Below, piece by piece: positions 14,280-40,573 of a stretch of 64,000 bases of DNA. Under the pieces are notes generated by a model, which searched no databases, was not told where the DNA came from, and saw nothing but the letters and a program-made list of their open reading frames with translations. Positions within the stretch are counted from its first letter, which is position 1. Each line of letters begins with the position of its first letter. The translations under genes and the position numbers were made by a program. Origin of the DNA: Diadema antillarum (lineage: Eukaryota); assembly GCF_040938485.1 (NCBI RefSeq), contig NW_027270963.1, forward strand, positions 2,232,001 to 2,296,000. The letters run 5' to 3'.

Positions 14280-17180
14280 GTAACGTATAATCACCAGAGA
14301 ATCTTAATCATTTCCTATCTTTCTTGACTGATAAGTGGTGTAAATGCAATGATCGTCATTGTTGTCTTGGGAGTGCATGACCGACAAAGTTGAGCCTTTA
14401 AGTAGTAAGTCAAAGATCCAAAGGATTGGATACTAATGGGGATAATATTCTTGTTCGTCGTAATTAAGATAATGATATGGATAAACACAAGAATACATTT
14501 TTACTAATCAGCAGAAAGAAATTCACTGATTGCAGATTTTTCCCCTAAAAGCTCCTAGTGGGATGAAAAGATTAAGTTTTCTAAATTGTTTTCCCAATAT
14601 CCGTGTCTATCTTTATTTTTAGCCTAATCATCCCCTTCAATAATGTTATACAGGTTTGAAAAGCGTTTACATAATGAGAACCTGATCTAATGTCGATAAA
14701 TAATAAAAAATTCTTGTGTTCTCTAAATTATGCATCAGAGGAACAAACACCATGATTATGTTTCATTTCGCAGCTCCATGCTGAGTGTTCAGAGTCAAAA
14801 TCCCAGACACTATTCTGCGTGGGATGACGTTAATTTCTTTGTCACTTCTATAGTACAGGCAGCTTTGTCTGCCGTCACTGGGATTTACGTCGACAGGAAG
14901 AATGTGTCACGTTTCATACAAACTCATCCATCATTTATGTGTTGCCCAAAAACCGACAACGTATCATTTTGACACTGCTAACGTAGCTTGACTCCTGGCC
15001 GTGTCTCCATAAGAGAAAAAGAATGCCCGTCTCCATCATTCCAGGCATAGTATCTGTTTCCTCCATACACAAAACTCAACAATGCACATGTTTTGTCCAT
15101 TGCGATATTTTGGTCCGATTATCAGTGATCGCCGGCCAACTTGAAAGTGAGTTTCTAGGCTGTACTTTTCGTTGCACTCAAAGCGCATTTCCAAGCCGTT
15201 TCAAAACACCTGTGAAACAAAATTCCACAATCCGCAATACATTAAGCTGACAAAAAGAAATAAAGTGATTAACTGAGATGTATTGAAGAAAAGTTACTTA
15301 AGCCGGGAACTGTCGTAAAAAGGAAGAAAACTGAGATGGGACCCAACTGAAAGTGATTGGTCAAGTTATTGTATGCCGCTGCTTTTAATAAACACAAAAG
15401 TTGATCTTGCTTTATAATATGTCATCAGGAGAGGGAAACTGGGCTGGTATCAACGAGAAACCGTTTCTTGCGAACGCAGTCATTAGAAGCAGGTAACAGC
15501 ATAGTAGACATACAGCATAATAGAGAATACCACCACTTGTAGTATAAAACAGCAACTACGCTATCAGCGTGGTTGATATCAGTGTTATTAAAGCTCGTGG
15601 CGCCTAATTGAGTCTAATTTGTGACAGCCCGCGCGATTTGACGAGATAATTTAGTGAATTCTGGCAGCATTAGCGGGGGAAAAAATGAGCATCCCCCTTT
15701 TTCTGTAACCCGACAACTGGACTGTCGGTATTATGGAAATGCATCCCACACACGCTTTATTGCAGTTAGCTATAGAATGACATAAGTTACCAGAATCCAT
15801 TAGGGTTCACCGAAAGGCATCATTTCTGACGCCTGCACTGAGAGCGATACATTTTAGACAACTCATTTTGCTTCAACAGTCTGTCACTAAAAAACAATGT
15901 ATACGATTAAAATCCTTCATTTACAACACAGGCGCGGTGAAAAGATATCGCTGTAAAGAGAAAGGGTGTGTATGTGCGCGCATGTTAGTGTATAATAATA
16001 TGTGTGTGTATTTCTTTGTTTGTCTGTTCTTTTTGTCAAGGTAGGCCTATCACATTAAATTTACGAGTGACAATATATTAATGCGATGGAGCTTTCGCCT
16101 CGAACTCGAGCGCTTCTCACCAAGTCACCGCTGATCTTATAGTCTTCATCACTGTTGCTGATCAACATTCCTGTCTTGCGACCCGCGACCGAGTTTGGCT
16201 CAGTTTCCATTTCTTCCTGATCAGCCCTCTGGCTCGTTTCTGACCCTCATCGAATTTCCTTTTATTTCTATCTCATTTCACCTCGCTTCGTTTCATCTCC
16301 CCCCGTTTCGAGAGCACACTTAGATGTCCCAAATGACACATCACAATATCCGCACACAAGAGCCATCAGTCCTGGGTAAAGAGAAACAAAGTTACGCAAG
16401 ATGGTGGTAGTTCTCCCGTTGCAGTTGGCTGCTCTCTATAGGAAAGGTCGCAGCAACAGAAAATGATGACGCATCTTTTGTCATGGGTGAATTTTAGACT
16501 GCACTACAAGTTCACGTTAAGGAAAAGGAGAGAGATATGATATGTCCCCTGAATCAGGCTTACGTATTTTGATGCAGATTTGCAAATTGAATGCCGAACA
16601 TGACCCATTAGTTGGTATGCCATCTACCGAAGATGAGTTGTGATCGGTCGAAAGGAAACGACTGAAATTGAAATGGGTATGCCTCCCGCTTGTACGACCG
16701 ACGACAATACCCTGATCTAAGAACGCATGTCAACAACCCAGACTATGGAAGCGTGATTCAACACGATGTCCAATGTAGATTTGATAAAAGAGTAAAAAGA
16801 AAGAGAATGATGGATGCGGCATCAAATAAGACAAAGAATGAGAAGTTATGGAATTCCGAGGTGTTACATATTCTCACGTCCTATCAGAATACTAAGTGAA
16901 TTTGGTCGCAGTCACATGTGCATGATAGCTGAGATGACGATGCCTTCAATTCGCACTTCTCAAGTTGGTTTGTGATCACAAATGTCGTAAAAATGATGTT
17001 TTTGTTCAATATTTTTCCAACTATACCATTCTTTTTCTACGTCACCTTTGTCCGATAATTATAACATGAATATAATTCATGTTAAGGATTCAACCGATTA
17101 TTACGACGCAAAGATAATCAACGTAAAGGATTCAATATTTTCTGTCTGATTGCATGTCAACAAAGAGGACATGTAATGAA

Positions 17181-21117: not shown

Positions 21118-22630
21118 CTCTTCTCTATCTCATTCTTTTTTCAGGCGGAAAGGGGATACATTTTGAATTATTATGAATCTCTCCGCCATTCCGCGCAGAT
21201 GATTTGCCTCTGCATATGACCGGTGGTTACACTGCGAATTTCAATCGGTTCGGGCTCTTGGTCTATGTTGCTCAACTCCCGACGGAACACACTCATGTGG
21301 GATATGTCAATGATTGTCTTTCGTCCTGTTTTTCGTCTCACATGTCTTTGGGATACATACAAAAAACAAGAGGGAAAAAATCACCAACAAAGAAAAAAAG
21401 AGATGATTAAACACCGCCTTTCTTTCAGAGCGCGGGGTAGAATTGTAATGGGATGGTAATTGTATTGTAATGAGAATCGTGAAACAGATCACTTTGCAGC
21501 ATATGGAGACGCGTCCGCCTTTTCAAGATATCACCGGCAAAATATCAATGCCAAATTAACAAATAAGCAAGACTACAAGCATATGACTATTACTATAACA
21601 TGTAGGTGATGCAAGCGAGCCAAAAAACAACAACAACAAATCAAAACAAAACAAAACACACACGGGCGACTGCCTAACTTCCGCTCACGGCGCAGTAATG
21701 GAGTAACAAGTCGCTTCGATAGACACAGTATGCCACTTTGTGTGGGTGTTTGTGTTACTTGTTTATGCGTTTGTGCATATAATGTGCGTGTGTGTGTGTT
21801 GATGGATTTGTATGTGCGCATTGTAGGGTGTGCATGTCGGGTTATTTTATTTCCTTTGGAATATCGGTGTTTTCAAGATTCAGAAAGGGGATATTGCAAG
21901 ATTTGATATACAATTTCTCCACTATGTTTGTATGAAAATGAGATTCATAATCATTATATCCCATGCGTTTGGACAGAATTCATCTTGTAAATACTTTATT
22001 TTTCAATATCTGATGTTTTGTAATTATTAGTCTGTAAAGATTTGTATGAAATCCATACGCAAATATGTTCGTTTAGCATTTTGATGTTTTTGTGTTCTAA
22101 ATGATTCCCAATAAATCGTTAAAAAAACGTAGTTTTTCTTTGAAAAAAAAAGTATACCAAAGATATTGTAAGGGCATAACATTAGGATCTTATGAGACAC
22201 AAGAGCAAATATCATCTTATGATTTATAATTAACAACAGCTCAAAGAGGGAGAGATTTTCCGTGGTTTGTTAGCTCGTATATGTGTATGTAGTTATCAAA
22301 ATTCAAATTACAGAACATGCTAGATATTCATGCATGGTTGGCTTTACAATCGCATGGGAAAAACAAGAGAAAATATGTATTTATTCACAAGCATGGGATA
22401 TTTAGAATATCCTTCATGAAATAGTAACTGTTCGTACACCTATAGCACTCATTTGAGTTACAGCAAAGAGAAGGCGGAAACCAACAGAAGAAATTTAATG
22501 AGAATGTGCATGAATGATATGTGGCGAAAGCCCCCTACGGCGACTCAATAGAAGGATTCTTAGTTGTCAAAGAATATGTCATCTCCAAAGATTTTAATTT
22601 GAAATTTATCTCCCTCTCTTCACCGAACAG

Positions 22631-22802
22631 ATCCGTACGTCAAAGTATCGCTCATGTCGCAAGGAAAGCGGATGAAGAAGAAGAAAACGACGGTGAAAAA
22701 GAATACCTTGAATCCCGTCTACAATGAAGCAATGGTATTCGACGTCGCTCCCGACAGCATGCAAAACATATGCCTCGTCGTCGCCGTTGTCGACTACGAC
22801 TG
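22631..22802 (+). CDS. SYT9-like: Synaptotagmin exon: C2B core with polybasic stretch
   Basis: cag|AT...TG|gtgagt. Encodes [58 protein letters not shown]. Confidence 0.95.
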
Positions 22803-23152
22803 GTGAGTAAACTGATGACCCGAACGATAGCTATGATAGTAATAATGACGATAGTTATGGTAAACGTGGTTGTATTAGGACGAATTGTAGTGGTGATATA
22901 ATCATATTAATAACTTCAAAATAATGATTACGGTGACAATACTGATAAAACCAACAACAGTTATCATCAACAACATCATAGCCATGATAATAGTAGGCCT
23001 ACACATAATGATAACTTGAGCTCCTGATATAACCCCAGGTATGCCCCTCAGTGTAAACACTCTCCTCCCAATGCAATCCTTTTCTGTACACCGTCATCGC
23101 CAAGTAAATATTTTAAACACCTTTGCATCAATTGGGACAAGGTGGGTAAAAA

Positions 23153-26579: not shown

Positions 26580-28262
26580 AATACTCGTAAGAGGGATGAA
26601 GATTGATGACTGAAATCTCAGGATAGTATTCTAAGAGTTAGATTAATTCGCAGCGAAACGGAGTGATTTACAGTGACCTAAATTACAATCTTGATTCATA
26701 ATCTTTGGCTTTACATCCGACTCCCCTCATACATTAAAGATACCATGATATACAATGTATTAAGAAAAGTTACTCTATAAATGCGATATTTAAATTGAAT
26801 GTATGCCTCGACGCGGTCGTAACAATGCTTTGATGCTAAAACTCAAACATGAATCCTTTGCATTTTTGCTCGAGTAAACGCAATAACAATTCTTCTCTTT
26901 TTTTTCGTTCTTACAATGTGATTAAAGTTGTGCTGTATACGCATAATTTCTCTTGACAGAATTGATTACATGATATGATTATGACGCAGTATCAACATGG
27001 CTGAAAATGTGTCGGGACACGCGAAAATCTGTCTCCCTTGAATTGCCTTTCTATAAGAGCGTGTGGGCGAGTACGTTATTGACCATAATTGAATTATGGC
27101 TTCCACGGGGTGGCCACACAGCAGATAACTGCTGATGTTTATCAAACTCATTTCCAAGAAGAGCTTAGGTACACTAAAATCAACTATATCTCGTACCACA
27201 GTACATATCCCATAAACCACCATTCAAAGTTTCAAATTGCACTACAAATGCCCCATGGTATTTTTTTATACGATAATTTTACGATAATTTGTTTGAAGTG
27301 ATTTTCTTAAGATAAAAGATAAAGCGCGCACTAAAGGCTTAAGTCCATATAGGCCCACTGGATCCCCTCCCCCCTCAAAACAAAAAGAAGAAGATAGAAC
27401 ATTTTCAACAGAAACTAGGACACCAAACTGACGTACGAAACGTAATGCGACACGTAAAATATCTTCAAACACACTGTCCTGAAAGGGCCAATTATTAGTC
27501 GCAATCAATGTAAACCCCAACAAATCAGTTGGTAAGACGTTTTTATTTATGTCATCTCAATAGAATGAAGCGTTACGTAGTATGTGTAGCGTCGTGTCAT
27601 GAACAGAACATGTGCACAATGCTCCATGATCATTATTTCAGAGCTCATACTGTAAGAGCGAACTGAATATAAACAAGATGAATGGTATAGGTTCAATATG
27701 ATAATCAACAGCAATACCACATTACATATTATTGCAAGCTACCAGTTTGCATTTTTTTTTCTGTGCCTCATTAGTTTCCTCTGATTCTAGTGAATATTGA
27801 GTAAATACCCGCTGTCATGTTTGTTTTCTTGCACCATTTTATCTTCACAGACATCCGGTGACGAAATTGGTGGATTTTTCTGCACTTGAAGCACTTCACT
27901 TCTGACGATTGTGGCTGTAAGTGGCGTTACGCACTTCTTATCTCTGAGCGTTCCCACCCATGGTTAAAGGCATGGGATATGACGATGGACGAGAAAGACT
28001 CTTGTGTAGTGACGTCATCATTACGATTTTAGCGCGTTCATTTGTTATCACTTCATATGAGTGGCGGGAGACTGGTATTCGTGCACGCTTCACGAAAGCA
28101 CAGAACGATCGGCCTTGTTTCGTTCGTTCGTTCGTTCGTTCCTTGTGTATTTCTGACTGTTTCCGCATCGGAAAACAAACGGAACTTCTGGGGATGTTCA
28201 CGGCTCAGCGTATGTAGAGTAGAGTTATGACAGCACTGAGGTAGACATTCATGGCGGCACGT

Positions 28263-28294
<32 letters not shown>

Positions 28295-30638
28295 GCACGA
28301 GTATCTTGTACCATTAGCTATTTTCACAACTGTTGAAAAGACTGGTCATAGTTTGTTAACCATGCTGCATGCATTAGCGGCGCGAGTCATTTCACTGACG
28401 GAGTTTCTTCAGTGGAAGTTGAGACTGGGTTCATTCTTTAGTAGCAATCGACGACCAGTTCACGGTTTTTGGTTGCGACTTGATGATGGTTGTTGTCTTC
28501 GATCCGAAATCATTGATGGATAACCCATCCAGGCCGAAGATGTACAGTTTGAATATATGATTAAGACGATCATGGTAATAAAAAAAAAATACAAAACATA
28601 TTCACGTGATAATTCATACATGCGTTGCCTTTCATACCAACAAGGTCAAACAATGTTTACTCTTTTGTCCAACCTTCCTAAGATGCCTTCGTTGAATTAA
28701 AACGGCAGTGAATCGATCGGTGATTCTACAGATTCTTCAATAAATTCTAAAGATATGAAAATCGCGAATGACCAAACTTAGTCTATTGTCTGAGAAGGAA
28801 TGTCTTTTCGAAATTTTTGATATAAAGATTTAACGGGAATTCCGCCATGGGCCATTTCGAGTCCTACCAAATCTTAGTGGAAAAAAATTTTGCATTCTTC
28901 GTTTGGACTCATTCGCGTAATTCCATGTACATTGTTCATCTTTTAGTGTAAGACACGTCGCCAGTATACTAATAGTATATTGGTGTGACGTATGTAAATA
29001 ATTAAGCAACGTATTGATAAGAGAACTTTTGTATGAAAAAAAGAAACAGTTTCGCTTGTCACAAAGTTGATTTTTTATCAGACTTTTCTACAACATGTAT
29101 TACATTGCGTATGGTAAGTAAGAAGGCATGCCAGTTTCTTGGTTGTAAATAGATTTAGGTGTTACTCACGGTTCATTAATATTTTATGGTGCTTGATATA
29201 AATGTTGCCACTGGTTTTTGAGCTCTCTCTTGTATAAGGTCGTTTTACTTAAGATCAAAACTTTCAAGTCTTAACGTGCTGCTACTTCGCGTGTCCGTAT
29301 GGAACCACTGCAATGGTGGAAAGGAAACATAAACCACTTTATTCTGTATGTAAAGAATTTGTTTTTCTTTGAGTGTTTGATAACATGGCTCTGATCAGAA
29401 CCATGTTATGATTTTATCTGAATTTTATCTGATGCTGTTCTTTCCTTTCCTTATTAGCTTATTAATATCACAAACATTTCTTACATTAGCTTGTAGTCAA
29501 GTCAAATTTAAGTGTTAAATGAATTGTTATGTGATTACACTCTCTTAAGCGTTTAGATAAGTCTGTCCATTTTTTTATATATTTTATTACAAATTGTCAG
29601 TAATCGATATTTTGAAGGCAGAATTATTTATTGTCAGTTTCACTAGTATGTAAATATGAATATGTGCAATATCTATGTGAAAATGTGAAAAAAATTATTT
29701 TGTTACCATTCCCTGTACATATTTCGATTTATACGGATTGATATTGGAATATCTATATGACTTTTAGTTTTCATCGTTACCATTAAGATAAGGCGTAATG
29801 TGAAGGTGGTTCGAGCAGTCGCTGATATTGGTGATATGATAAACACAATGTGATCGTATGCTGTCATGAAAAAAAAACACGTCATTTTCGAGATAAATAT
29901 TTGTTTACGCAGTTCTCATGCAGAAAAAAAACCACCAACATGTGTCTTATTTGTTTGTTATATGTGTGATTACGTTGTACGTGGGAGCTGGGCTTGGCAA
30001 AAAGGAACAAACAAACATAACACAGACAAAACAAGACAAACAAAAAAACAACAACACGACCCTTTGAACAAACGTGTTCGTCCCCGTGGAGACATCAATG
30101 ATTATGTAACGAATCAAGCTTCTCCAACTTCCCTTTGTTGTGAAAATTCACGTTCACGGTCACCAATAAAATCGTAATTGTATACAGGCGTTGGAGGGGA
30201 AAACCAGAATGTATCACCTGTAGGGCGCTAAAAACTAGTGAGGGATGTTTTAAGTAGCGAAGATAACTTCAAGGACTTAATAATCTCACCAACGTTGCAT
30301 TTAAGAACATTCTGTATATTCCCGTCAGCATAAGTCGGTCAAATAAATGGTTTAATCAAAGTATTTTCAGAGTAATGCAAGTCCTTGACCTAAAATATCT
30401 GTGGTAGGCATTTCCAAATCATCACCACCAACTTCACTGCATGCGAAGTACAGCTTTTGCGTCTCATGCGCGCAGTGCGTACAAATTAGTACCTGATTTT
30501 TTTTATGCTCTTACATCCCAAACCACCACCTGTTCGAAAAGTGGAAACTTCTCTGGAAATTGTTCCATATTTACCTATTCCCAGAAGCTGCACGTTTCGA
30601 CAATACTTTAGACTGCATGCTGTTGCACATGAATATAA

Positions 30639-30697
<59 letters not shown>

Positions 30698-30752
30698 ATA
30701 CAGTGTATACATATATATATTTATATATAGCGAAAACTTTGAGCAAAGAAAA

Positions 30753-30830
30753 TGGGTTTTCATCGGGATTCGAACCAGAGACCTCCGGATTACTAAACCG
30801 GTGCTCTACCGACTGAGCTATTGAAAGCCC
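30753..30830 (-). pseudogene. tRNA-Thr(AGT)-derived sequence (pseudogene or SINE-like head), left arm of a foldback
   Basis: Reverse complement GGGCTTTCAATAGCTCAGTCGGTAGAGCACCGGTTTAGTAATCCGGAGGTCTCTGGTTCGAATCCCGATGAAAACCCA has an A box, D arm, anticodon loop with AGT, B box GGTTCGAATCC, then TTTT. Stem mismatches and an extra base argue against a functional tRNA. Confidence 0.7.
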
Positions 30831-30847
30831 TATATGTAAACCTATAA

Positions 30848-30914
30848 AGCTCAGTCGGTAGAGCGCCGGTCTAGTAATCCGGAGGTCTCGGCTTCGAATC
30901 CCGATGAAAACCCA
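30848..30914 (+). pseudogene. tRNA-Thr(AGT)-derived sequence, 5'-deleted right arm of a foldback
   Basis: AGCTCAGTCGGTAGAGCGCCGGTCTAGTAATCCGGAGGTCTCGGCTTCGAATCCCGATGAAAACCCA then TTTT. The anticodon loop is CT-AGT-AA; the 5' acceptor strand is missing. Confidence 0.7.
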
Positions 30915-30970
30915 TTTTCTTTGCTCAAAGTTTTCGCTATTTATTATTACAAGTGTTTCTGGTCAGTTTT

Positions 30971-31173
30971 NNNNNNNNNNNNNNNNNNNNNNNNNNNNNN
31001 NNNNNNNNNNNNNNNNNNNNNNNNNNNNNNNNNNNNNNNNNNNNNNNNNNNNNNNNNNNNNNNNNNNNNNNNNNNNNNNNNNNNNNNNNNNNNNNNNNNN
31101 NNNNNNNNNNNNNNNNNNNNNNNNNNNNNNNNNNNNNNNNNNNNNNNNNNNNNNNNNNNNNNNNNNNNNNNNN
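30971..31173. other. Assembly gap (N run)
   Basis: Direct reading. Further gaps at 32046-32173, 53815-54047, 54195-54441 and 55863-56035. Confidence 1.
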
Positions 31174-31605
31174 CTTGGAGATAAAGAGTAAAGACAAAAC
31201 GGTGGCAATCATAATGTTTGTCTCGATATGCTGGACAAGAGAGGGCGCTAAGCAAATATTTTGTGATGGACAGGTTGACTATTTATATCAAATCACAATG
31301 ACGACATGAACAGTTAAAGGCAGGTAAAATACAGCTTGTTCAATCATGCATTTATCCATATAGCAATAAGGACAATGATGACAATCTATCATCTATTATT
31401 ACATCATTCTTGTGTTATATTACAATACCCAACTGAATAAGTAACTATCTTAATATAAGAAATTAGAAATTATGTATACATCTACATAATCATTTATTGA
31501 GATTATGTATAAATCATGAATATAATACATGTATATATATATATATATTGACAGCAAATCTTGCACATATAGACGTGGCTGGTGTTGGGTAGCACCCCTT
31601 TAATC

Positions 31606-31640
31606 ATCGAGCTTCCGGGCGAAAATCCCTTCTTCAGGAT
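31606..31640 (-). ncRNA. Minimal type I hammerhead ribozyme motif, degenerate copy
   Basis: Reverse complement ATC-CTGAAGA-A-GGGATTTTCGCCC-GGAA-GCTC-GAT. The core GAAA is changed to GGAA and stem II has one mismatch; the palindromic AGCT of stem III is retained. Confidence 0.55.
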
Positions 31641-31917
31641 CTATACAGTCAATGACAACAACGTATAAATAACCGACCATAACCTTCTCACAGACAACAC
31701 TACAAGACCACACTCAGCACCAACACAGTAAGTTTTGTTTTGAGATTGTATTTAGTAATAGTATGCTGATTTGTTTTTTGTTATAAAATGTGCTGAATTG
31801 AGGTATGTTTTATGTTGAGTATATTTTGAAATGTATAGTATATGAGGCTAGTTGAGTTTAGTATGATTTTATACCTAGGTTGATTTTATTTATACGTTGT
31901 TGTCATTGACTGTATAG

Positions 31918-31952
31918 ATCCTGAAGAAGGGCTTTTCGCCCGAAAGTTCGAT
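31918..31952 (+). ncRNA. Minimal type I hammerhead ribozyme motif
   Basis: ATC-CTGAAGA-A-GGGC-TTTTC-GCCC-GAAA-GTTC-GAT: CUGANGA core, 4-bp stem II, GAAA, minimal stem III ending in a UC cleavage site, 3-bp stem I ATC/GAT. Confidence 0.7.
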
Positions 31953-34397
31953 GATTAAAGGGGTGCTACCCAACACCAGCCACGTCTATATGTGCAAGAT
32001 TTGCTGTCAATAGATTTACTGTTCTTGCACCGCCCCGCCATGTTGNNNNNNNNNNNNNNNNNNNNNNNNNNNNNNNNNNNNNNNNNNNNNNNNNNNNNNN
32101 NNNNNNNNNNNNNNNNNNNNNNNNNNNNNNNNNNNNNNNNNNNNNNNNNNNNNNNNNNNNNNNNNNNNNNNNNTATGCAGTAAACTCTTTTTGATAACAC
32201 TTTTAAGGAGTTTGCCATTCATTTTGGGGCAGTTCTTGTCTTTGTCTTTGCTTTTTATTGTAATCAGTAAGAAGCTGCAATTGGCTTGTCGCATCCGAAA
32301 TGCCTAGAAGGAGTGGCATTATATCTTATTCTCGGTCCATACTTTCTGATTACTTGCTTTGTGACATATAACACTGCCTTTAGACTGTTAATACGTGAAA
32401 AAAAAAAGGATTTTCATGTAGTAAGGAAGTGACATACTTCTTGTTGCAAGGAATTGATTTATTTTTCACACTGTGATATTCGTCAATGTAAAACATATTA
32501 TTTCCCAAACTGCTGGATTTGCGTCTGAGCCAAGGTGATCGATCCATGTTGTACGCACAAAAGTACGCTTTCATAAATTTTCTTTTTAGGGGGTTTACTA
32601 AAAATTACAGTCCTCATGATAACATCACATACGAAATCGGTTTTTAAAAAAATAAATATTATTCATGAGAAAACATTTGATCAAGATCAATACCGACCAA
32701 AAATGTTTCCTGGAAAACAAAAGAGAATATGCTTTTGCTGAGTAATCATCTGCCTATAATGCTTGCTGTTTGTGTACGGTATACTTATTTTTTGCCTTTT
32801 TTTTCTCAGCCATGTAACACGTATAACATGTAGTTGTGAACTGTCTGTCGTGTTGTTGTTTAGTTTGTGTGTATGTCTGCATTTACGTCTATTTCGCTTT
32901 TATTTTTGGATGATTTACTCACAATATACAAGATTATTGATTTTTCACTCCCCATATGAAGTATAGTGAAAGACTACTAAAGTTAATTGTTCCGTTGAGG
33001 TTCATTATGACGTCTGGTCTGCAACATGCGTGCATTGAGCTGTTGCTACGTCAGTCAAGCCTTGGGCAAAGCGAGTAGATATCAGTAATAATATAAATAC
33101 ATATGAATAATGTATTAGCCAACCGGTAACTGTGGTGCTAATTATGTTGGTTTTTTTTACACATTTTATCCTTCTCTCTCTCTCTCTCTCTCTCCCTCTC
33201 TTTCTCCCTCTATGTTTTTCATTATATTTCTATGTAGATTTAGTAACTGCTTCATCACTTTGTCAACTGAAAGTGTATCCTTACATCACATCGGCTTTGA
33301 ATTATTTTGTAGGTGGGGAAGAAAAAAAAAGAGATTATTCATGAAAAAGTCGAAACGCACTGATTTGAAACCACTGGGAAGAAGATGAAATGTTGTAGAC
33401 ACTGATAGATATGTGATACGGATGCAAGAGCTAGTTTTTCCCCAGGCATATATCACCCTCTATAGGACGCTAGCCAATACATCATTCCACATTGTCTATT
33501 GTTGTTGTTATTGTGTGTTTTTTAGCAACCACTCTAGCTCATGTGCCGTGAAGAGGTTCAGGCTTGGGGTGACCGTTTAACCCTTTCTTTGCCAATGAGT
33601 CCAATGTGCACAGATGTTACACGCATACCTATGGGCAGAAAATGAATGCGGTAGGCAGAGGGTTAACAGCAAAATCCTTGCGCGGACTTGACAGGGAGAG
33701 ACTCTGAATGAACGAACCGTTTGTTTGTTTGTTTTTTTTATTTGCATGGTTTATGACAAACATTGGGGCATGTAGCAAATTTTATCGACAAGTGGCATGG
33801 CCCTCTGTTTATTTTCATCTTTACCGTCTCTCTAACAGAATAATGGCACTGCAAGTCACAGAAAAGCTCTTGAGAAAACTATTTACATTTTAGGTTTGCA
33901 AATACCAAAATTATTCATCCAGACAGATAACTACCAAACCGATTTATTATATTGTGTGATGTTCAAATACTTGACAATCAGTATTTATGTCACATGGCAT
34001 CATTGATTACGGGTAGTTTAAAGAGAGTGAACTAACATGACTAATATGAATTAGTTATATAAACACGTTTGAACATCAAATCTCTTCTCTAATCCACCAA
34101 GAACTTTCGGTACGTGACCAATAAAACATTTTGATATCCAGTGTCACTTAGCATAGATCTATATTGTACTATGTCTGAGCAGTCTGAGCTTATTCACATC
34201 ACGAGACAATGTCACGCCAGCACATGCGAAGAAAATTGAATACGTTTCTGAGACCAATCCGCTAAAAGGTCTAACGTCTCATTAATCACGAGAAAACACA
34301 TACCACAGTTTAGGATTAACTGGCAGGACAAGCAGACAAGTGTTAACGATATTCAACTCACCTGCACTTAAAGTAGAACTCTCCATGTTATTTTTAT

Positions 34398-34433
34398 CGT
34401 TGTTGTTGTTGTTGCTGCTGCTGCTGCTGCTGC

Positions 34434-34466
<33 letters not shown>
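34398..34466. repeat. Compound (TTG)n(CTG)n(TTG)n microsatellite
   Basis: Direct reading. Confidence 0.9.
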
Positions 34467-34467
<1 letters not shown>

Positions 34468-35665
34468 ACAAAATTAGGCTGTACCTAAATATTCATATAA
34501 CAAAAAAATTTTTCGGGGGAAAGTCGTCCAGCAAATATTTATTACAAGGCTCGACATGACCGGTGGCCCGGTGGCCCGGGGTCAACAGAAACAGATGTCG
34601 GGACACCACTTTTTAAGAAAAGATATGTTTTGATGACCCGTTAGAGCCACGAAATTTCATTGTCGGTAACAACGCATTATATAAAAAGAAGTGAGTTGAT
34701 GATGTCATCGCTCTACACTTTTCTAGACGACTTGCACACGAACTTTGACTGAATTCCCTTTGTTAAGATGAACTTTAAAAAAGAAAAGAACATGTATACT
34801 ATGCATTAAATTAGTTAATGTGTTAGTGACCTTGTAATTATAAAGTTTTGCTTTTCCAGTATGCGGGAGTGGTTACTTGTAAAGCTGCTTAATCCATGAC
34901 AAATAGCGTCGTTATAAAAGCAAAGAAAATCTAACAGCTATGAAGTGAAAAAATCGATTCTGCTCGTGAATGAATTGAATCTTATATCGTTCTTTCAGTG
35001 GAATATTTAAACTTCAGATTCATTTGGTGCCCATCCTATCACACACAAAAAATGTGTTCTCTTTGTTTTACTTTACTCATTTTATTTGCCAGGGGGACTA
35101 TATTTCATAGTGGAGTTTTTGCCTTTAAATGAAGGATAGCTGGCAGCGTGCAATTAGCTGATTACTCAGGATGGGACTACCTCATCACCGTGCCATTGAT
35201 TGTGGCTATTAAAAGTCAGCGCCCTCACCCGTTTCAGTGCAAAAAGGCACCACAGCGGGCAGTGCGTAGCTCAATTCACCATCATCACAATCATACCTTG
35301 GCTGGTGGTATAGGCTGACACTTCCTTTGGTCCGTTCGTAACACTCTCCTGTCACATATATATATATCTTGGAGTACAAATTACATGGACTTTTTTTTCA
35401 TTAATTCATTCATTTATCTGTTTTCATATTGCCAAGTTATGTAGCTACAATGTTTCTACAAAAGGTGCATAGATCAACATTACAATGTACAATAAATGAA
35501 CTTTATGACTTTGCAAAAGAATTTAAAAAGTGGAATCTAAAAGAAAAGCAGAATTACAAAACTCAATTACACGAACTTACTGTGAGAAGAAACCTAACCA
35601 GTTCTAAACAAACACTCTGGACAAATCTCAACACTAAGTGTTGTTATGTAGAAAAGAAAGAAGAT

Positions 35666-35696
<31 letters not shown>

Positions 35697-37549
35697 GAGA
35701 GAGTGAGAGAGGGAGAGAAAGAGAGAGAGAGCACTTGGTTAAGTTATCTTCAGTGTGTCATCTTATCTATGCATTTTCTATTTTTAAGTTTTGATTGTTA
35801 CAAAACGAAAGTAAACCTGCTATAGCAGTTAATGACTAAAAAGCAAATATCTTTCATCTTCAAGTCCTTATCGATAGATCGACCGGAGGAATAATTCATG
35901 TCTTTTAGAAATGAACGAAAATCTGACAAAAAATAATTTCCAGATAACCAAAGGTATACAAAAATATAACGCGAAATTGCGAGAAAGTGAATACCCCCTC
36001 CCCCTCCCCCCCCCCCCAAAAAAAAGGGGGGAAAGATCTGTGTCACTAATATTCATGGAAAGTCAAGGTTTCCAGCAAGTATAAATCAAAGAATAGGCTT
36101 ATTTCTTTTATTAGGATGTCCGCAACGATGTTTAAATATCACTTCTTTAATGTGTGCTTAACATATGAATTCTATTCCATTTATTAATTTCTTTATATTG
36201 ATACAATACACGTAGTAAGTATATTCCAGCCTTAACTGCTAAGTTTGGCTTACTGCATAGACTTCAACACACTTTATATCAGGTGAGCCCAGCAGAGCGT
36301 AGCCGGCTACCACGGTAACCGAGGAGTAACGCTGCAAGATGAGGTCATTTATCGTCATGTCACCTTGGAAACGGTTTACAGGAATGGCAAACGAGTCGAC
36401 CCATCAGGTAAATTAAAAATCATGGCCAAATGATTTCATTGAATTCGCGAACCCCACAGTATCATACCCATATTGATTTCTCTCCCGCCACAGAGTGATC
36501 ACAGCTTCAGTATGAATAGAGACCAAAGCGAAACCATTTTTTATCAAAACGAAAGTGAGGAAAACACAAACGAGCATTTTCCCCAGTGAATACCACCAGA
36601 TATTTCTTATCCCAGCAGCCATCACTGAGAACTGTGGAGGACAATAAGCTTGAATGAAAGTTAGACAATATCACTTGTATCGAGGGGATTATGATGTTAC
36701 AATAACGATGCATATCTAGCACGGTAGAATGACAAATCTAATCGGTGTAGAAGAGAGGTTGTTGGGAGAAAACGAAACCAGGCAGCATGAGTAAAGGTCT
36801 TCCAATGCTAATTCGTTTACGCTATTTGTTGGGCAGTTGAAACTTTTCCTCGTGGAAGGAGGCATACTGGAGAAACCTGCTGTCGCAGGCTAAATTTTTG
36901 CATGAAGTTTTGGGATTGTTTCCAGTCATCGAATGCGTAAAAAAGGTGCAGAGTACAATATTAAGTACGGTGGCATTCACGACGTGCGTCAGTCACATGC
37001 GCGTTGTGACGCTGAACGAATGCTGCAGTGTTGTATTATTCTACGTCGCGAGGAACCGTTTGCGTCTGCGCAAATATATTGGACAGCAAGCGAAATACAC
37101 GTGGAGAAACACGATTACAGGTCTGCACAGAAATCGATGTAGATACATTCCGACATCAGTCAGTTTGCGATCTGATTTAATCACTACAGAGGATGAGTAG
37201 AAAGGGACAGACGATCACTCAAGCCGATATTACCGAGAGCGGACTGTTTTGGGTCATGCTTCTTACCTCATCTTTACTGGGTTGTGCTTGTCACACCAGC
37301 AATAATGAAATAAAATAGAAAATATAAATTCTCCAACGATATTTGAAAGCAAGTTAAGGTAATCCTCTGCAAACTCAAATTTACGTCGTGACTTTGTTCA
37401 CATGATTGCGGTGATTGCTTAGCAAGCTGATGTGAGCTCACGATTTGTGTATGAATGGGAAGTTTTCTTCTAGTCTGGACTGAACTCAAGCAACTGTTGG
37501 TGGAAAGGTCTTCTCCCTTGGACGGTGGCGACCTCGCCAGTTTGATAAG

Positions 37550-40226: not shown

Positions 40227-40573
40227 GTGAGTGTAGTTGTTGAAGTGAATGAAATGGATTCCGTTTAATAACCATAGGTCAAAGCAAATATTGAGCAGTT
40301 CGTTATGTATAATAATTGATGTGTACGTTTGTTTGTCATTAGTTTGTTTATACATCTGTGTAAGTTGATTTGTTAAATAGAATAGACATGATTCCCACTC
40401 ACATGACATCGCCCTTTAGTTGAACACATAGGTTGTTTCGTGAGTAAAGTGTTTATAACAACAATCAAAACGTGTTTGTTGTCTGGTGTATGGTCGTTTA
40501 TCGTTTTTGTCATTATATTATTTTTTTAAAAAATGCGCAAATGTTCTTAATCATTCTCGTTTTGAAATCTCAG

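Follow-up and report, generated by a model that had tools for sequence, protein, structure and literature searches.

The question raised by this locus is how an element without an open reading frame (ORF) comes to consist of two inverted arms, each with a minimal hammerhead ribozyme, and what such a structure says about the insertion of Penelope-like elements (PLEs). The element lies in the window, a stretch of 64,000 nucleotides from Diadema antillarum (Table 1). An initial annotation described 127-bp inverted arms, and these were reproduced together with both motifs; positions 31546-31672 and 31886-32012 are 127 nt each and differ by three mismatches (31611/31947, 31615/31943, 31626/31932). 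The element is not confined to 31546..32012 as had been proposed, since the plus arm extends into a tail that can be read as far as 32045. The change from C/A-rich to T/G-rich sequence near 31728 is real, but it does not mark the point of inversion. Family copies align to 31673-32045 in a single colinear block, which places the inversion junction at 31672/31673, and 31728 reads as the donor of an intron. Position 31673 was rejected as a fixed pLTR boundary because many copies are colinear further upstream.

Table 1. Features of the inverted element, in window coordinates.
Feature	Position	Strand	Remark
(TA)n target, left flank	31532..31547	.	Read from the sequence; last TA may belong to element or target
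Short arm, inverted, running from start site 1 into the intron, ending at unit position 3904	31548..31672	-	
Minimal hammerhead, minus copy	31606..31640	-	Predicted inactive, with A13>G (31615) and one stem II pair disrupted (31626)
Head-to-head junction, blunt, without microhomology	31672..31673	.	Gap 0 in counterpart L002
First exon of leader, C/A-rich	31673..31727	+	5' end inside putative transcription-start zone, unit 3669-3718
Intron, 190 nt, T/G-rich, spliceosomal-type, GTAAGT...TATAG, retained here	31728..31917	+	Exactly absent from genomic sister copies
Minimal type I hammerhead, plus copy	31918..31952	+	C>T at 31947; cleavage predicted to follow C31949
Parts of plus hammerhead	stem I 31918-20/31950-52; core 31921-27; stem II 31929-32/31938-41; GAAA 31942-45	+	
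ATTAAA, polyadenylation-signal-like hexamer right after cut	31954..31959	+	A(A/T)TAAA recurs in sibling families; putative function
Start site 1, where short arms end, TGTCAA|TA boundary	32010..32012	+	
Tail, readable to 32045, holding the first ATG of the ORF (32040-42)	32013..32045	+	L002 and other copies

A genome search with the element as query gave 401 candidates, of which 40 were scored, with 93-100% identity. The proposed association with PLE ORFs was borne out by an intact parent element (L031), whose 4,088-bp units are arranged in tandem and whose intact ORF spans 1,017 amino acids counted from the first ATG. The ORF codes for a reverse transcriptase (RT) domain (RVT_1, PF00078) along with a GIY-YIG domain at the C-terminus (PF01541), both above the cut-off, and the protein is 100% identical to a database protein labelled Diadema antillarum. 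A second long reading frame, of 1,033 codons, is found at C900. Unit positions are numbered along L031, with the intron donor at 3745, the acceptor at 3935, the hammerhead cut at 3967, start site 1 at 4030, the ATG at 4059 and start site 2 at 4086. On this scale the left arm of the window copy runs from 4030 back to 3904 and the right arm from 3690 onward, through site 1 into the tail; window positions 31673-32045 match the parent as one colinear piece with 97% identity. The insertion is thus an ORF-less member of a young, (TA)n-targeting EN+ Penelope-like family, and the earlier assignment to PLEs stands in that respect. The family has the traits of EN+ PLEs: RT and GIY-YIG in a single ORF, tandem pLTRs, an inverted truncated copy, a one-sided tail and, judging from genomic copies, a spliceosomal intron within the 5' UTR of the pLTR. 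Between RT and EN, the linker reads CX4CxxH in this family and CX4CxxC in a sibling family with about 50% EN identity. By the criteria in PMC8557442, a Cys linker, CX2-5CxxC in the Neptune clade, and a (TA)n target, the family appears Neptune-like, Nematis sharing the linker; none of the 120 homologues listed in a protein homologue search is a clade-named protein. A hydrophobic, signal-peptide-like ORF start (mean hydropathy 1.5-2.0 over 17 amino acids) followed by a second Met is seen in four families (L031 3655-3720; L041, L042, L053), and PLE families are nested in each other's (TA)n flanks (L016 1880-2950; L047; L049; L056).

The two arms in the window are unequal, one short and one longer with a tail, and are not equal terminal repeats. 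In family copies the tail ends about 22 nt beyond 32045, at start site 2, and is followed by (TA)n. No target-site duplication can be read at the family insertions because both ends abut (TA)n. One other copy, L002, has the same head-to-head junction and flanks that are 90-96% identical, and for these reasons it is probably the other allele of the window insertion. The two copies share the GGAA change in the minus hammerhead; only the window copy has the changes at 31947 and 31626.

The segment 31728-31917 is, judged from the sister copies, a GT-AG spliceosomal-type intron with 31728 as its donor, because it is precisely missing from independent genomic insertions in which unit position 3744 is joined straight to 3936. 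An exact search of the genome for this spliced junction gave 25 matches, all of which were examined and which represent 11 independent insertions. In a sibling family the spliced junction was predicted beforehand from a donor-like site; it gave 19 matches against none for the control and was confirmed in all eight loci read, one of them by eye. In a third family nine of ten non-native junctions are one spliced form, with an intron of about 530 nt. The acceptor is at the 5' edge of stem I in all three families. The precisely spliced copies in three families, taken as retrocopies, show that sense, spliced RNA is copied. In the contigs of four runs, for which an RNA origin is not established, no joint across the intron was found.

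All 16 spliced arms in a table of 54 insertions end at unit 3673-3710, and the intron is kept in all 43 arms that extend upstream of unit 3669. Unspliced ends in the interval 3100-3925 fall within the 50-nt zone 3669-3718 in 9 of 50 cases (p 0.003), or in 9 of 33 when the background is narrowed (p 0.012), for a zone picked after the data were seen. These ends point to a transcription-start zone 35-55 nt before the donor, at about 31673-31692, with start site and splicing both read from genomic copies. Since the plus arm begins at 3690, within this zone, the window element would be a copy of the whole unspliced leader. The plus arm is therefore probably a complete 5' leader rather than a random truncation; of the initial reading as a truncated, ORF-less PLE insertion, the ORF-less inverted PLE is retained and the truncation of this arm is not.

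The plus hammerhead reads ATC-CTGAAGA-A-GGGC/TTTTC/GCCC-GAAA-GTTC-GAT, and both hammerheads read outward from the centre. The minus copy has GGAA in place of GAAA and a broken stem II pair. A consensus of the two copies had been said to restore GAAA and the AGCT palindrome, and this intact form is indeed the family form, since the 37-nt motif has 117 exact matches in the genome and its reversed control has none. A general hammerhead search was less informative: an Rfam scan of 28000-36000 gave 16 matches and no hammerhead family, and a loose hammerhead pattern occurs in the window at chance level (5 matches versus 4.8 expected). For this reason the hammerhead assignment is based on the family copies and on covariation. 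The comparison was made for the core YUGANRA, an extra nucleotide before stem II, G10.1-C11.1, GAAA, a palindromic 15-16 region and a short stem I; the family form and its siblings match the minimal type I hammerhead of PLEs, and both window copies depart from it. Across ten rows of related families, two of them the window copies, 92% of the cells are paired, against 43% for the best slid control, in a comparison that leans in favour of the structure because it was set from the same sequences. Two-sided changes are found in seven of nine pairs, including C3-G8 to U3-A8, and stems I and II covary across sibling families, in agreement with the conservation of core and stem II that had been anticipated. 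The 3-bp helix I is wholly within exon 2 and is unchanged by splicing.

Both hammerheads at this locus are probably inactive passengers and are predicted not to cut. The minus copy was already considered dead, and a calculated stem II pairing probability of 0.01 makes this likely. Cleavage by the plus copy, which had been thought possible, is doubtful because a private C>T at 31947 breaks its AGCT palindrome and because the only neighbouring hammerhead is on the opposite strand. The folding calculations give the four-base dimer helix -2.5 kcal/mol in its unchanged form, -0.1 kcal/mol when the changed copy pairs with an intact one and +5.2 when it pairs with itself, and in read-through RNA of either strand the arms fold into one long hairpin (-269 to -280 kcal/mol). 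Minimal hammerhead forms had no activity as monomers (PMC4209133), and the anole hammerhead needed protein (PMC11167929). An origin of the template ends in hammerhead cleavage is not supported, since none of 108 arm ends falls at unit 3964-3970. A search for junctions at the cut site gave 21 matches, in which one identical pair joins exactly at the cut and one at +1, and the rest are scattered, core variants or unrelated. Two downstream scans of one sibling family (L044-L046, L050, L051, L053, L059, L060) found no hammerhead. A hexamer resembling A(A/T)TAAA lies at most about 10 nt after the cut in every family seen (31954-31959 in the window; L016, L041, L042, L047, L049, L057), and an ACGTC motif follows about 30 nt after the hexamer in most families (window 31981-31987). 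A literature search on the post-hammerhead hexamer found only a review.

A pattern search of the genome shows two exact end types, both abutting TATATA and both carrying a similar 11-mer, with 147 short and 148 tail ends. Pairing was counted in the first listed places (100 short and 97 tail ends, up to contig 613). Among the matches listed, all 42 outward pairs within 12 kb consist of one short and one tail end, with no short-short and no tail-tail pair; a single passenger copy accounts for 33 further pairs, and 47 ends have no partner. A spliced palindromic insertion and its deletion derivatives are found inside a larger repeat (L061-L080, L082, L101, L104, L105, L107, L108, L110, L111, L114). 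The 54 independent two-armed insertions were tabulated by hand from BLAST chains, with alleles and passenger copies collapsed and with degraded, single-armed and complex loci left out (L095, L106, L119, L133, L138, L139, L140 and partial views). Because spliced copies were deliberately looked for, the table over-represents them.

The two arms of an insertion agree with each other. Both arms are spliced in 6 insertions and unspliced in 32, and none is mixed (Fisher p 3.6e-7, or p 2e-4 when only arms that end close to the start zone are taken), and six both-spliced insertions and no mixed ones were read in two sibling families. The arm subtype is concordant in all 40 scored insertions against 17.8 expected by shuffling, a scoring in which two rows are unparsed and an internal tandem copy may have been counted for L121 and L134; such concordance would also be expected if one source locus supplied two RNAs or if gene conversion acted between the arms. 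Of the 54 insertions, 33 have a short arm that extends further 5' than the tail arm, 7, among them the window copy, have a tail arm that does so, and in 14 the arms are level. Arm lengths range from less than 30 nt to more than one unit. Among 16 short tail arms, six end within 4026-4036, at site 1 (p 0.0015), and seven tail arms consist almost entirely of tail and have hardly any sequence in common with the short arm. The arms end within 12 nt of each other in 8 of 44 non-spliced insertions against 0.96 expected. The junctions overlap by at least 3 nt in 13 of 53 insertions against 7% expected, by a rough BLAST overlap, and 19 have extra bases. Five complex copies (L119, L122, L133, L138, L140) are not readily accommodated by the model set out below and were kept out of the table. 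Arm ends also recur in the 3' UTR at unit 3207-3210, 3324-3329 and 3360-3377, which may be pause sites or minor starts (L005, L017, L019, L020, L023, L026, L032, L096, L136). L119 and L122 reach about 170-220 nt past site 2, a hint of a rarer third start site or of template jumps.

In LINE-1 twin priming a single RNA serves as template for priming from both target strands, and the inverted 5' part is joined by microhomology. The LINE-1 cDNAs are non-overlapping, whereas in the present family the same region is usually duplicated and there are two fixed start sites. A related process is the probable origin of the insertions described here: each of the two nicked target strands would prime on the same sense RNA molecule, from start sites separated by 56 nt. 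This reading is favoured because the arms share splice state and subtype and because the pairing is strictly short with tail. The RNA would start in the pLTR at about 31673-31692 and in the case of the window would still be unspliced. The protein would then cut both strands of AT-rich DNA, and copying would begin at two internal sites, a step taken over from in vitro work on an anole element (PMC11167929). One cDNA would start from site 1 and the other from site 2, the latter thus carrying the tail. The trailing site-2 enzyme may stall at the leading site-1 cDNA or displace it, an order that fits the usually greater 5' reach of the short arm and the tail arms that stop at site 1. By analogy with LINE-1, the cDNA ends would finally be joined head to head. 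At the window locus the site-1 copy would have ended at 125 nt, with the site-2 copy reaching the 5' end of the RNA. Against the model count the longer tail arm of the window copy, a minority case, the modest microhomology at the junctions and the complex copies; the fold-back and two-RNA alternatives given below each account for part of the pattern.

PMC11167929 describes a pair of start sites on either side of the tail, cleavage and extension of both strands, and a predicted dimer; in vitro the start site was not seen to differ between the strands, in contrast to the strict short and tail pairing in the genome. The twin-priming rule alone would yield a one-sided tail, a head-to-head repeat and a palindromic centre. 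Splicing appears to be confined to the cap-proximal intron, which would make spliced copies short dead ends and leave the intron in long copies. The long copies would derive from the unspliced downstream pLTR of read-through RNA, and leader stubs would be dead ends. That twin priming from one RNA with two fixed start sites, one for each target strand, is obligatory in PLEs and combined with cap-proximal-only splicing is a wider proposal, for and against which the chances seem evenly balanced.

An unlikely alternative is that one cDNA snaps back and is copied into a hairpin whose tip is later trimmed, so that both arms come from the same element with the same intron. Fold-back would account for the shared splice state and subtype and also for the near-perfect palindromic centres of L082, L090, L109, L112 and L113. 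It predicts, however, a tail arm at least as long as the short arm, because the tail is present only in the site-2 cDNA, and the opposite is found in 33 of 40 unequal cases. The seven tail arms that are nearly all tail have almost no overlap with the short arm, and fold-back would require one-sided deletions halting at site 1. Two RNAs of one source locus carried by a protein dimer, each copied from one start site, are somewhat less likely still. Such a pair would explain the subtype concordance and would let the arms overlap without strand displacement, and a dimer is predicted in PMC11167929. Mixed insertions would then be expected because one locus yields both spliced and unspliced RNA (PMC2377424), yet there are none among 38 informative insertions and none among the six both-spliced ones in two sibling families; tail arms stopping at site 1 are not predicted either.

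Far less probable than either of these is self-priming by antisense RNA, put forward as a hypothesis in PMC3846280, which would make the palindrome and explain intron retention. Head-to-head palindromes and retained introns are common in the family, but in three families spliced and unspliced copies share both kinds of end, and since spliced copies need a sense, spliced template, this is excluded as a general route. The least probable origin is a fixed MITE-like or retrozyme-like unit that moves whole, with its junction at 31728. A 277-bp palindromic copy is present dozens of times and, among the matches listed, makes up 33 end pairs in the first 613 contigs. However, these copies share both flanks in 19 of 20 read and so ride inside a larger repeat, and they were rejected as a self-mobile miniature. 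The exact structure of the window recurs only in L002, with matching flanks, arm lengths vary widely, and there are no tandem short units. The locus thus lacks the tandem short hammerhead units of a retrozyme, having two copies on opposite strands, and a MITE or DNA transposon is not indicated when the sole counterpart shares its flanks and lengths vary.

The preferred reading, priming of both strands on one RNA, agrees in several respects with systems already described. EN+ PLE insertions with an inverted, 5'-truncated pLTR and a one-sided tail (PMC8557442; Pen2a_Av in PMC3846280) have the same architecture, with tandem and inverted copies, a tail over the ORF start, a hammerhead in the pLTR and a microsatellite target. 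They differ in a tail of 30-40 nt versus 56 nt here, and the window copy lacks an ORF remnant. The available portions of the same two papers contain no description of spliced genomic copies that was found. Penelope of D. virilis has a 5' UTR intron 46 nt after the start (PMC2377424), compared with about 35-55 nt suggested here, and, as here, the 3' end of its intron is at the 5' end of helix I and helix III is palindromic (PMC4209133). Its intron is 75 nt; that of the window's family is 190 nt, and this family in addition has a Cys-rich RT-EN linker and helix I in exon 2. The Poseidon element PAc of Anolis (PMC11167929) also has two adjacent internal start sites bracketing the tail, an AT-rich target and copying through an uncut hammerhead. 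Unlike in PAc, site 1 here precedes the first ATG, site 2 falls inside the ORF at about 27 nt, and every insertion makes use of both, one at either end. Neptune and Nematis (PMC8557442) share the RT-linker-EN order, the Cys motif and the (TA)n bias; the last Cys is His here. Metazoan non-LTR retrozymes (10.64898/2026.07.22.740005) are ORF-less and pLTR-related with a type I hammerhead, as here, but they are head-to-tail tandem units, and the window holds a single head-to-head product without spread.

The architecture, the hammerhead, the position of the intron and the (TA)n bias are thus already in print. A literature search of open-access papers found neither spliced genomic PLE copies nor twin priming in PLEs. 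The locus itself is a dead stub, and it is the family that bears on the formation of inverted ends and on intron survival in PLEs. Templating by sense or antisense RNA was left open in PMC3846280, and the steps after initiation were left unvalidated in PMC11167929. The short and tail pairing together with the shared splice state gives a concrete model that is testable in the existing in vitro system, and an intact, very young parent element is present in the genome.

A second inverted pair is found in the window at 30718-30949, with 102-nt arms of 93% identity beside a (TA)n run. Each arm is tRNA-like (Rfam tRNA, 43.6 and 39.3 bits), and the pair is likely two head-to-head heads of a tRNA-derived SINE. 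A search of the window did not find the final exon of the upstream C2-domain gene. Exons of this synaptotagmin-like gene lie upstream of the element and exons of two transglutaminase genes downstream (13353-14327, 22603-22803, 40459-41607 and 62847-63272 for these neighbours), which places the element either between neighbouring genes or in a late intron of the C2-domain gene.
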